Shown here: piece after piece, positions 2,205 to 37,600 of the stretch
How positions within the stretch are numbered: position 1 is the first letter of the stretch
How the letters are laid out: every line of letters starts with the position of its first letter
NCBI GenBank assembly: GCA_024137785.1
Contig: JAHRHZ010000282.1
Coordinates: forward strand, 186,001-250,000
Origin: Ginglymostoma cirratum
Lineage: Eukaryota
Direction: 5' to 3'
DNA: 64,000 nt
Position numbers and translations under genes: made by a program
Notes under the pieces: model-generated
What the model saw: only the letters and a program-made list of their open reading frames with translations
Told to the model about the DNA's origin: nothing
The model's database searches: none

Positions 2205-3092
2205 ATTTCTCACCTTTTGAAGGAAACAATGACAGTGACGGCTGGGCACAGCAGTGGGTTCTTCATCTCCTGTTGGAACTTTTTTTTGGTCATTGCTTAG
2301 CTGAAGACGATGTTGCAGGAGCTGAGTACTAGGAACATGTTCGACACCTCCGAAAGGATGTACTGTGGATCGTTGAAATCCAGACAACCGAAGCTCAGCC
2401 TCATACAAAAGGAAATGCCAAACATGAGTGGCTCACAGCATGATGAAGCCAAGAGAGATGGTGAAGAACAGGAGAATTGACATTTTCCGATTCGATACCT
2501 CCGGATCTTTGCGGTTATCATCAACCCAGAACCCTATGCAGGCTTGGCTGCCTGCAATGATGTGTCTGACGGTCTTGGCGTTGAAAAGCAGAATGAGTAG
2601 GAGCGGGAGAATGAGGTAAAGATACAGTCCAGCCGGTGGTAAGCCTGCCACGTGGGTGAGGTGTAGAAGGCTGTCTTGAAAGGCCACGGAAACAAAGCAC
2701 GCCTTCCAGCATGTAGAAGGACCGGTAGGTAAAGTAGAAAGGAAGGTTCTTAATGCAGCTCAGTAGACAAACAATTCCTGTGGCCAGAAAGCAGTTTTCT
2801 TTTTGCAGTATCTGGTGTTCCGGCTCTGGCAGTAGATGGTAACTGAACGGTCAATGGTGAATGCGACCATCAGCCAGGCAGAGCAATCCGGGGTTGAAAA
2901 GACGAGGACATTATTGAGCCTGGTCGGAGAAGTGGACATGACATTTTCACGAAAGTAGACGCCACGAATTCAGTTGAAAATGACGACAGTGATGTTGATG
3001 AGGAAGTCACTCGCCGCTATCACCTCAAAATAATAGGTAATGCGCTGACGGGGTCAGTCCCAGGGATAAGATCAAAATGGCCAACAAGTTGT
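2205..3092 (-). pseudogene. GPR139/GPR142-like class A GPCR pseudogene copy 1, exon 2
   Basis: Fragments NLLAILIL, AWLMVAFTIDRS, LILPLLLILLFNAKTVRHIIAGS, DPEVSNRKMSILLFFTISLGFIML and DFNDPQYILSEVSNMFLVLSSCN are colinear with the copy at 22199-23169. It has frameshifts, stops and a damaged acceptor. Confidence 0.85.
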
Positions 3093-3794
3093 TTTGGAAA
3101 AAAAAAATAAGAACATTATTGACTAGACATTAATCACCACATATTTCCTTATCCAAATTTGACTGAAACTAATCCAATTTCTCCCTTTACCACTCTTAAG
3201 CTGCCTCTTCCAAAGCTAAGGTAATTTTTCAGCATCCAATGTTGGATTCAACAATTGTCAGGGAGTCACTGCAATCAGTCTCGGACACAGACTCAACTCT
3301 CTGGCAAGTGAGTTAATTCGGGTCCATCTACTGCACACACGTATAACATGAACAATTTGTGGTCAGTTCTATGTTCATATCAAAAACCATTCAGCGACAA
3401 ATCCTCTGTTTTGCTGACCTGAATTTATTCATCACCTGTCAAGCTCTCAGTTTTAATAATCATTTCCACTGAATTTCCAAATACTTTGATACTCCAGAAA
3501 TTCCTGTCCTTGATCATTTCGCAGTAATCATGGATTTTTGCGAATGTGTAATTTCTCCATTTTAAAATCCCTGATATTAACTTCTCCCTCAGTGGTGATT
3601 GTGCCCATCAGATCTGATCTCTGCAATTTCGTACCTTTGTGGCTTAGAGTTTTCTTCTCTCTTTAGGATGTTCCTGTTACCCTAAAGCTTTGATCAAAAT
3701 TTGAGTTAAATATCTTCTGCTGTCGTAACTTATCAAATTTCTTGTTACTGCTGCTGTGAAACATCTCCACTATATGAACTGCCGTGACTAAAGG

Positions 3795-33648: not shown

Positions 33649-34684
33649 TTATATCCCTTTATAACTGGAGCAGCAGTTTATCAGATTGCTGACTCGGATG
33701 TATGTGGGAGAAGTGACCACTAGGTCAGTTTGGTCGAAAAAAAAAGCAATATGAAGGGATTTTCCATACCCACATTGTTTCAAGAAAGTGGTCAGAGTGG
33801 CGAAGGGGGAGATCAGAACTTTCTTCAGCTCCTCTGGAAACATATGCTGAAACAATGCATCGATGAAGTCGTTGTGGAAGGAATGAAGTAAACAAAACGT
33901 TTTGGGTGTCTCTTGGAGGATGTACTGCGAGTCACTGAAATTCTGTCCAGCGAAGTAAATCTGAACTTGAAGTCGCTTGTAAATAAAATGTCCGACAAGG
34001 AGGGACCACAGGCGGAGGAAGCTTAGGGAGATGACAAACAGCAGGGCAATGGACTTCTTGTGGTTGGCACCTTCTCGGTCTAGACACTTCTCGGCGCCCC
34101 AGAATCTCCTGCGTGTTCTGTACGCCACTAGGATGGGTCTTATTGTAAGGAAGTTACGCTGCAGAAAGAGGAAGAAAGAGAGAAAAGGAGTGAATATGTG
34201 GAAGAAACAACCATAAGCTTTCCAAGCTGGCCAGATGTAGAAGTTGGCTTTGCAACTGCAAAACCAGGGTACACCGTCCAAAATGAAGGAGGGCTGGAAC
34301 GAAAATTCGAAAGGGACGCTCTTGATACAGTTCAGGACAAAGATCAGTCCAATGATCAGTGATGCAGTTTTCTTGTTGCAGTGTCTGGTCTATAGTTTCT
34401 GGTAGCAGGCGTCAACCAAACCATCGATGTTAAGGGCGAAGGCCAGCTAGATGGAGGAATTAGTGGTGGAATTGACCAGCAAGACACTGAGAGTGCACAC
34501 AGGAGTGGTGGGCAAGACATTTTCCCGGAAGTTGTCACAGCTGATTTGGTTGAAGATGACTGTGGTGACAAAGATGCCTATTATGACCAGGAAAGCACTC
34601 ACTGTGATCGCCATCAGGTAGTATGTGATGCAACAGGAGAGACTGCAACTTCTTCGAGTTTGATTAGGATCGTTAACAAGTTCA
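33649..34684 (-). pseudogene. GPR139/GPR142-like GPCR pseudogene copy 3, exon 2
   Basis: Acceptor tcacag, then VNLLTILI, RSCSLSCCITYYLMAITVSAFLVII, VPWFC, KKSIALLFVISLSFLRLW and NFSDSQYILQET. It has frameshifts and a stop. Confidence 0.85.
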
Positions 34685-37600
34685 CTGTGAGTTATCAAAA
34701 GAGACAGTTATGAGTGAACTCAGTCCAATCATCAGCTGTTCCTTCTTGCAATATTATACAGACGCCAACCATCACCTTGCCAGTTCCAGTCTCTGCGTAT
34801 TTTGAATCCATTGAAAAGTGTTGCATATCCAATGCAGCATGACACAACTTTATAAAACATCTGTCCATGCGATCAGCTCTCGGAAAAAAATGTCATTCTC
34901 TGGTCACTAAGTAAATGCCAATGGCTACTTGGCCAATTCATGATAAAGGTAATAGTGTGGTGCTCAAGAAGTAACTCATGCCAAGCACCGGCCATCCGTC
35001 AAACCATAACCGGTGACCAACCTTGGTTCCTCACCAGTGATGTATCAAACTTTAAAAAGTCAACTTTCTAATTTGCAGAAGCTCCAGCGTCTCGCCCCAT
35101 CCATTGCTATAACATCAAACAAATGTCTGAAATCTCATGTTAACTTCCATCCCATTTCCCTCGTGTCCGTCACATTGGGATTTTTAATTGTCTCGTTTGT
35201 AAATTTAATGAGTAAAGCCCTAATTGCTGGAATTATTCCTTCAGCTTCTCCGCTCCTGCCGTCTCCTTTCAGACGTTGCTGTGATTAAATCTTTTGAGAA
35301 TATCTCACATTCCTCGGGACTAAATTGTTTTTCTAAATTGTTCTGATGTTTTACATGTGCAGTAACGTCGCTCGAGTTGAAGTGTGCTTTTTCTGGTTTT
35401 AAAAAAGAAATACAAATATCCAAAATTGCGAAACGCAGCACAGAAGCAAATTAACAGTTTAGAAGTCTTGAATCTTCACGGATGGTTTTTTGGACGAAAC
35501 TCGAATTAATTTTAAAGGCCACATTGATAATGGTGCAGTCCATTGGGGACTCTATTATATCATAAAATGGAACGCACTGTAGATTCATGCAATGATTGAA
35601 TGTATGTTTATCTGACAAACCATCTCATAAGGTACTTCCACAAAGTAAATCGCATCCAGATACTGCAATGAGACCTGTGCAAAATCGGCATTTTACACAA
35701 TGATAAACAGTTAATCCTACAATGGATTTAAAATCTCGGTTGCATTTTACTAAATTCGAATGAAACCTAATCTGTGACAATAATACAGTTTGATATTCAT
35801 GCAAAGTCATTCATCACAATTCGTAGTACAGCATCTAAGAGGCAATTTTTCCATAAATACACAACATGCAGAACTCAGAACAACTTGCCTTTCATTGCAA
35901 TGTAATTGTAAGTACTGCACAATTATTTGCCATAACACAAACTGGATCCAATAATGTAAGATATGCATTGGAGACCTTTTGAAGTCCCTGAAAATCAACA
36001 CGTTGCATTTTGGAAAATTTCTGCTGAATCATGAAAGGGAAAAGAATAAATATATGGAAATACACAAATAAGACAACAATTTTCTTGAGCATCAGAGATT
36101 TACTGGGGCAGTAATTGCAGGCAAAATTGATTTGCAAATGTCAAAGAAGGGAGCAATGACTGGTGTGTGCATCTTCGTTCAGAAACTACTGGAGTAGCTG
36201 CCGTGGCAGATTTTTTTTTTCAGTTACAAATTCAAATGTGCTCTCACTTATTTTGAGTAATAGTCTTGCAATGGGCAATTCAGTTATAACATGCACCTTG
36301 CTTACATTTTGCATGACAAAGAAATTACCTGACTTCTGCTTGTCCTCCGACGAGGTGAATCATTGGATTTCATTTTTGGGATGGGATCTTTTTAAAATAT
36401 TAGGTTCATCTAACTCGCAAAACATGACGATGTGACTTTATCATTGGATACGCTGATCGTACACACTGAGCTGAGCCCTCTCTCAAATGTTTCTTCCCTG
36501 TTTCTGCTTTTCTGATATTTCCCATTTTGACTGTTATTTTAAGTGTCAATTTACTTCACCACTAGCGTTCATTCATACTCGTTTTAGTGCTGAATACTTC
36601 AAGGCTACTTAAATATTTCCACAAATTTACAGTCGAACTCTTGGAAAGCACAGTTAACAAACATCGGAGATTAATGTGGCAGGGATCACCAAACTCAAAG
36701 TTTTGTCACATTAAATCTGAAAAATCCTTTATTTAGTCAGATCAGTCACAACGTTTTGGAAGGGAGTTCAAGTGCCGAAGTTTGTTGTCAGAGCTTGTGG
36801 TAGAGAAACGGTTGAGCAATGTCAATGTTTAATGCAACGAGAAAAAAACATCAGCTTAATGAATGATTGGAATATGGCTGAAAATTAAAATGCCAAGTTC
36901 ATCGACAACGCAGGCACGGTCGATGCAATGCAGGAAGGTTTATACTCTGATGGAGTAGCAAATGAGATACAGCCAATGGTAGTGATCACAAGTACAGACA
37001 TTTTGTAACATTAAAAAAGGCAGATAATTTTTCAGGGACAATGATGACACCTCAAGATGCAATACGGACCCAGACACAGTCGAATGCAGTAAACATCATT
37101 TGATTGCATCGTGCCATTGAAACGGCCTGTAGAAACAACAAATAAAATAGGACCCGATTTAAGAGAAGCAGAGATATGGTGGAGCTTGTAGTAAACATAG
37201 ACAGGGTGCGGTGTGAACTCAGCAAAATATGACAGAAATGATGCAGCTAAATTAAATGTGAAAACAAAGACTTAGCTATGATATTACCAGCTGATGTACA
37301 TGTAATCTCAATGGAAATAAATTGATGGACAGTTTGAGCGTCAGTCAGTTGTTACGCAACTACTTACAGGATCGTGTGCATTTATTAATTGTTTGCTCAG
37401 TCTGTTTATCAAGGTAGCAAGGACGAGTCCAAAGACAACAACCATGGCCTAGTGAAACATTAAGAGTAACAGATCATACTGAAATGAATATTAACTTAGA
37501 TAGAGTGCGACAACAGTGTCGGCCCCTGAACTTCCGAATACTAGAATAAAAGGAAGTAGAGCTTATAAAATGATAATTAGTATGTGGGAAAGTATTTTGG

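Follow-up and report, generated by a model that had tools for sequence, protein, structure and literature searches.

The window analysed here comprises 64,000 nucleotides of DNA of the nurse shark Ginglymostoma cirratum, namely positions 186001-250000 of the 1.16-Mb scaffold JAHRHZ010000282.1 (hereafter C282) in the 4.36-Gb genome assembly GCA_024137785.1, and contains genes for G protein-coupled receptors (GPCRs) interspersed with variable (V) segments of the T-cell receptor (TCR). It probably sits in the V region of the shark TCR alpha/delta (TRA/TRD) locus, with C282 being a scaffold separate from C115, which bears the diversity-joining-constant (D-J-C) region. Most of the window belongs to a block of about 45 kb that holds both kinds of gene and recurs along C282. 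The closest homologues of the GPCR are found in whale shark (83%) and epaulette shark (80%).

GPCR copies and TCR segments in the window

The receptor genes, the TCR segments and the duplicated tract are located as follows.

2244-3091, minus strand: exon 2 of GPCR copy A, a pseudogene with 4 stops and 5 frameshifting indels relative to an intact paralogue
7508-7577, minus strand: exon 1 of copy A (approximate ends), aligned to its sister at 412 kb of C282; donor AC instead of GT
19580-63780, no strand: duplicated segment, to which at least five sister units along C282 are collinear
22199-23169, minus strand: exon 2 of GPCR copy B, an open frame under neutral evolution (Pfam 7tm_1, E 2e-20)
23674-23743, minus strand: exon 1 of copy B; donor at 23673-23672 is GA, not GT
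27086-27310, minus strand: TCR V pseudogene with stops and no usable recombination signal sequence (RSS)
28196-28511, minus strand: TCR V pseudogene; deletions of 8 and 1 nt take out the conserved Trp, heptamer damaged, no Pfam match
33790-34691, minus strand: exon 2 of GPCR copy C, a pseudogene with 2 stops and frameshifting indels
36104-36172, minus strand: exon 1 of copy C, one base short at the junction
39751-40060, minus strand: supporting TCR-delta V (V-delta) of a NAR-TCR cassette, open, with both canonical Cys and a Cys in complementarity-determining region 1; 23-RSS at 39750
42806-42855, minus strand: J segment of the NAR-TCR cassette; it has a 23-RSS and a GT donor, and its frame fits that of the supporting V
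43233-43249, minus strand: candidate NAR-TCR D segment with heptamers at both sides and poor nonamers
43638-43921, minus strand: NAR V exon, open; RSS with a 22-bp spacer and 4 mismatches to the consensus
44072-44114, minus strand: leader exon of the NAR V, as read from the sequence
60934-61189, plus strand: TCR V pseudogene with 23-RSS, the first gene of the next unit

The three receptor copies are two-exon, seven-transmembrane genes lying on the minus strand where the original prediction had placed them, and since their DNA is 61-66% identical in pairwise comparison they are clearly diverged and therefore old paralogues, as had likewise been proposed. All three are disabled. In copy B, whose exon 2 is open, the damage concerns the donor, which reads GA, while its three closest sisters carry GT. 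Changes specific to the copy B lineage amount to 37.5 nonsynonymous versus 9.5 synonymous (pN/pS 1.21; neutrality not rejected, p 0.87), compared with 6/19 and 19/28 in two intact sisters (pN/pS 0.10 and 0.21; Fisher p 2e-6 for copy B against the intact sisters). Moreover, 15 of 101 conserved columns are altered in copy B versus 2-8 in seven intact copies. At the donor, no alternative letter is listed in a public data set of very deep coverage, a weak support, as this set may stem from the source sample. Rescue by read-through of the intron, as in a whale shark gene model, was considered and rejected: the equivalent start in the window runs into a stop, and copy B drifts neutrally. Two raw RNA runs with the same species label, in which no stretch revealed the organism, yielded 0 reads on copy B. 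Two contigs of a presumed-RNA run resemble copy B at 93-94% but correspond to none of the four sister copies compared, agreeing at 2-3 of 15 and 8-11 of 16 alleles and showing many extra differences, and nothing was drawn from them.

The V segments expected at 28.2 and 39.7 kb are indeed present (28.2-28.5 kb and 39.75-40.06 kb), but the former is a pseudogene, while the latter is the supporting V-delta of a cassette whose NAR V, D and J at 42.8-44.1 kb had escaped the original prediction, as had the V pseudogene at 27 kb. Judged from its sequence, the interval 39.7-44.1 kb is a NAR-TCR cassette, in which a leader and a NAR V with RSS are followed by D, J and then the supporting V-delta. The latter features a splice acceptor, a leader of its own was not seen, and the donor of the NAR-TCR J is predicted to splice in frame to this leaderless segment, which has its own 23-RSS. 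Homologues of the supporting V-delta include great white shark LOC121270138, called NARTCRdV in table S1 of PMC12227049. As the D candidate combines good heptamers with poor nonamers, the cassette may rearrange poorly. Behind the supporting V-delta, a 62-bp tandem array at 39568-39753 repeats the recombination signal of this segment, and a perfect 23-RSS lies at 39627, 123 bp downstream of the true signal, where it could serve as a decoy or rescue signal.

The proposed regular alternation of GPCRs and V segments does not hold, given that no V lies between copies A and B and a provirus is found there instead. Likewise, the location of everything on the minus strand is correct for the items originally listed but not beyond them: the V at 61 kb, which has an RSS, is on the plus strand, as are 15 of the 35 GPCR loci and 24 of the 79 V loci counted in 800 kb of C282.

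Two further features complete the inventory of the window.

8498-19334, minus strand: old broken provirus between GPCR copies A and B, flanked by direct repeats resembling long terminal repeats (LTRs), 88% alike; its open reading frame fragments are taken, from motifs, to be gag, pol, integrase and env-like
46680-47045, plus strand: short open reading frame fragment, presumably C2H2 zinc-finger-like judging from its motif

A third, inverted copy of the LTR-like repeat lies at 4220-5006, within the intron of GPCR copy A.

A duplicated block of receptor genes, V segments and cassettes

Between 19.6 and 64 kb the window lines up in the same order, in its spacers as well as its genes, with other stretches of C282, namely with 21.6-62 kb and 254-301 kb (about 72-86%), with 67-102 kb and 304-335 kb (about 72-84%) and with 542-598 kb (about 67-71%); it matches 603-622 kb and 684-692 kb more patchily, and 1-16 kb at 80-89%. 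The unit of about 45 kb, which comprises a GPCR, dead V segments, a second GPCR and a NAR-TCR cassette along with the spacers, occurs at least six times on C282, and gene order suggests a larger block still, C282 13-190 kb being repeated at 247-410 kb. Copy B and each of its three closest relatives sit 18-20 kb downstream of a NAR-TCR cassette. Genome-wide, and with weaker matches left out, C282 carries eight close relatives each of the NAR V and of the supporting V-delta, and C115 a single pair.

The phylogenies of GPCRs and neighbouring V segments, whose comparison had been suggested together with the original prediction, are congruent. In the five units that keep exon 2 of GPCR B, 8/8 segments (GPCR exon, V exons, introns and spacers) yield the topology (((U1,U4),U3),U5,U6) with supports of 89-100, where U3 is the window, and in a comparison of six units 6/6 segments share one topology. 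Because the spacers are collinear and all segments give one tree, what was duplicated is an entire block of DNA and not a GPCR-V pair. The notion that GPCR and V segments were co-duplicated as a unit is thus strongly supported, with the correction that this unit is large and carries spacers, repeats and dead genes. Between U1 and U3, divergence is 0.18 in spacers versus 0.10 in exon 2 of GPCR B.

Repeated units of this kind might in principle reflect haplotigs or false duplications in the assembly, the more so as the region is fragmented and has gaps. This reading is refuted by the divergence of the units from each other: they differ by 4-30%, form a nested tree and carry different lesions, and embedded GPCRs have one-to-one whale shark orthologues, so that an artefact is extremely improbable.

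Within the repeated block, the fates of receptor and cassette differ from unit to unit. In U1 the GPCR is intact, but seven residues of the V-delta are gone along with its first canonical Cys; U5 also has an intact GPCR, combined with a stop in V-delta. U3 and U6 retain an open cassette next to a dead GPCR, and in U2 and U4 both are dead or lost. Hence, none of the six units keeps an intact GPCR together with an open NAR-TCR cassette, which suggests that the two survive independently of each other, six units being too few for a test.

The receptor family and its link to the antigen-receptor chromosome

A census of the embedded receptors was taken over C282 1-800 kb, which was fetched whole and includes a few masked or gap stretches. 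Ten of 35 exon-2 loci are open, or nine once copy B is excluded, and each of the nine is preceded by a first exon whose donor reads GT; intact embedded copies include those at 25.7k, 121.5k, 308k, 440k, 698k and 789k. The other 25 loci are broken or partial. Intact pairs without copy B display dN/dS values of 0.13-0.25 in seven of eight cases and 0.39 in one very recent pair, and the intact copies compared are under purifying selection. Among the V loci on C282, at most 21 of 79 are intact with RSS by a simple filter, an estimate on the upper side because the filter passed the V-delta of U1, which lacks its first canonical Cys.

A search of the genome with copy B returned 1229 first-look candidates. 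The 132 that were scored come from 37 contigs, these counts being lower bounds and biased to the kin of copy B. Of these 132 matches, 25 are situated on C282, C115 and C116, the scaffolds with TCR V arrays, and 107 elsewhere. Another 25 of the 132 lie on C108 alone, with a dense array at 2.77-6.05 Mb, where six 10-kb samples (60 kb) contained four open GPCRs and no V. C108 may be part of the same chromosome, because the whale shark partner of one of its members shares a scaffold with NAR-TCR. The family is thus clustered instead of evenly scattered, and with nine of 35 embedded loci looking intact its locus-embedded copies are not all pseudogenes; even scattering and pseudogenes throughout had been named, along with absent lymphoid expression, as the findings that would refute the original prediction.

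A quick protein tree was built from the top 30 genome matches, two more copies from C282 and 26 selected homologues. A clade with support 100 unites 20 genome rows, 16 of them on TRA/TRD scaffolds and many with one-to-one whale shark partners, and also includes proteins of horn, cat, hound, basking and white sharks. The embedded copies do not form one clade, since C282 contributes three of the 12 genome rows that fall outside the main clade. In other sharks, 46 of 88 top homologues, in eight of ten species, share a scaffold with a NAR-TCR V-delta protein, as judged from equal scaffold size, which indicates a shared scaffold and not interleaving; 32 of 120 homologue rows were excluded as belonging to species without a V match or lacking a contig. 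In the two species without a shared scaffold, the V matches are on small scaffolds.

This linkage could mean that the intact embedded GPCRs are lymphocyte receptors sharing the regulation of the locus through TCR alpha/delta accessibility, in which case no clonal variation would be needed. The concentration of the clade on TRA/TRD scaffolds (16/20), the same-scaffold link in 8/10 sharks and the purifying selection on intact copies would fit such a role, as would the 14 of 37 GPCR-bearing contigs with top C1-set or V-set matches (a hand tally in which contig size is not controlled). Against it, copy B with its dead donor adds to the 25 of 35 embedded exon-2 loci already counted as broken or partial, dense V-free arrays exist, and GPCRs occur on both strands. 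Shared regulation is hence regarded as unlikely, if the least unlikely of the alternatives considered.

As to the identity of the receptors, exon 2 of copy B encodes a class A (rhodopsin-like) GPCR (7tm_1, 73.7 bits versus a cut-off of 30.5). The label GPR139/142-like, under which the family was first described, is borne out insofar as human GPR139 is the best sequence match of the shark homologues in the PDB (E 3e-12, 49.5 bits, and 5e-10). The match is weak, however, at 43-50 bits versus 38-40 for LPA6, PrRP and neurotensin receptors (neurotensin 38), and the high full-length similarity to human GPR139 that would indicate GPR139/GPR142 orthology is absent. In a search of 1.8 billion representatives, with ten looked up among 150 listed rows, closer relatives were found in salamanders (36%, 166 bits), coelacanth (34%) and teleosts (28-31%), and the shark homologues match coelacanth and salamander proteins at 148-166 bits. 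Most shark homologues are labelled 'probable GPR139' by NCBI, and the salamander, coelacanth and teleost relatives are likewise auto-named. Because these relatives are closer than GPR139 itself, the family is best regarded, on sequence grounds, as a vertebrate lineage of its own, akin to GPR139 and hugely expanded in sharks and rays. GPR139 and GPR142 are activated by L-Trp and L-Phe. Olfactory receptors, which have a single coding exon and match olfactory receptor families best, were rejected as an identity: the shark genes have two coding exons with a phase-1 intron, match Pfam 7tm_1 only and find no olfactory receptor among PDB or Atlas matches.

Rearrangement, origin of the linkage and known systems

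The consequences of V(D)J joining for embedded genes depend on orientation. On C115, which also carries a related NAR-TCR cassette and GPCRs, the plus strand at 2.61-2.72 Mb holds what we take, from motif and order, to be TRDJ, TRDC, about 60 TRAJ and TRAC, followed by exons that are presumably OXA1L-like and SLC7A-like. The J cluster was located by a local scan, as a strict 12-RSS pattern was uninformative (6 matches versus 5 in the control), and an RSS scan of C115 2572479-2720300 revealed no D segment; the open V segments adjoining the J/C genes in this interval are on the minus strand. C282 could not be joined to C115, which contains one 1.18-Mb gap, and an attempt to orient it relative to the D-J-C region gave only repeat matches at the scaffold ends. 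At its far end (1087440-1103524) C282 bears an IgM-like cluster with V, J and C exons, as expected for an antigen-receptor complex.

Beyond 1.08 Mb of C115, 15 of 22 mapped TCR-type V segments are on the minus strand, i.e. opposite to J, including the NAR-TCR cassette and the open V nearest to the J cluster; this is a hand tally of a region fetched in part, with gaps of 10-400 N besides the large one. RAG-mediated joining of a V on the opposite strand proceeds by inversion and retains the intervening DNA. Therefore, these 15 V segments would invert rather than delete what lies between. The same pattern is evident in table S1 of PMC12227049: of the 25 V rows that lie upstream of the epaulette shark TCR-alpha model, 15 are on the other strand, as are 3/3 NAR-TCR V in stingray.

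According to the original prediction, deletional V(D)J joining would make the set of working GPCR genes differ from one T-cell clone to the next. Intact GPCRs are indeed flanked by intact V segments with RSS, so that some of them would be excised by joins within one strand, and deletion of some copies in some clones is conceivable because C282 could not be oriented. Nevertheless, a clonally variable receptor set finds no backing in the window, whose three copies are dead; furthermore, most V on the D-J-C scaffold oppose J, as in epaulette shark and stingray, more than 100 relatives (107 of 132) reside outside the locus, and the second allele would often keep the gene. This version is accordingly judged very improbable. 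Scarcely better placed is a broader one, in which T cells express the intact embedded copies, and inversion or deletion alters which of them each clone carries or switches on. If it were true, a second, germline-encoded and clonally varied receptor layer would be superimposed on the TCR, drawing on a family of more than 100, perhaps many hundreds of receptors, with one old clade built into the antigen-receptor complex; this would be striking, but nothing in the window supports the clonal idea.

The explanation preferred here, with a probability of about 0.75, is that the GPCRs are old residents of the antigen-receptor chromosome which were block-copied with V segments and NAR-TCR cassettes, and that they are likely passengers with a job unrelated to T-cell rearrangement. 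Blocks of about 45 kb with GPCRs, V segments and cassettes were copied, probably by unequal crossing-over in a repeat-rich tandem array, after which each gene copy survived or died singly. Selection would act on the GPCRs in their own right, and family size, birth-and-death turnover and the class A fold suggest that they may be a diversifying family of small-molecule or peptide sensors. Rearrangement would invert or delete some embedded copies in T cells as a by-product, as must hold for the olfactory receptor genes among mammalian TRAV segments.

Several points weigh against the passenger explanation. The linkage has been conserved for a long time (16/20 clade rows on TRA/TRD scaffolds; 46 of 88 homologues, in eight of ten sharks), and such conservation fits inertia but would also fit a functional tie. 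Nine of the embedded copies appear intact, independent survival cannot be proved from as few as six units, and the receptors' job is only presumed to be unrelated to T cells.

Block copying explains the multiplication of NAR-TCR cassettes in the nurse shark, the cassettes being parts of the repeated block of which most copies die. In addition, a GPCR family that is large and under selection (1229 first-look candidates, 132 of them scored) emerges in a group for which PMC8455134 describes a paucity of GPCRs. The family merits follow-up, as does its ancient linkage to the antigen-receptor chromosome. A literature search retrieved no description of this shark GPCR family or of its antigen-receptor linkage, though the locus maps of Criscitiello 2006, Deiss 2019 and Ott 2021 may show GPCRs. 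Term searches found no mention of GPR139-like genes in PMC12227049 and its two supplementary files, nor of the family in PMC10751288, PMC11979771, PMC12294341 and PMC8455134, and cassettes as parts of a repeated block are not described in section 6 and table S1 of PMC12227049.

In mammals, unrelated genes also reside in TCR loci. Trypsinogen genes lie inside the mammalian TRB locus, where they have been duplicated and some are intact while others are dead. Like the shark GPCRs, they are thus unrelated genes duplicated within a TCR locus, some of them dead, although gene family and locus differ and the shark unit also carries a doubly rearranging NAR-TCR cassette. A closer parallel in kind is offered by the olfactory receptor genes among mammalian TRAV segments (human OR10G2 and OR4E2, mouse Olfr1507-1509; PMC4574546), which are class A GPCRs located between V segments of TRA/TRD and exposed to rearrangement, as in the shark. 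However, the mammalian genes number two or three and occupy the distal end, whereas the shark has 35 loci in 800 kb, distributed throughout the V array on both strands and block-copied with V segments; moreover, the shark receptors are not olfactory receptors, GPR139 being their best match of solved structure. Finally, the elasmobranch antigen-receptor complex, as portrayed in PMC12227049 and PMC6795676, comprises several cassettes with NAR V-D-J upstream of a supporting V-delta, TCR V segments mixed with immunoglobulin heavy-chain clusters, and V segments on both strands, and the shark window shares with it the layout of the cassette as well as the presence of V on both strands.

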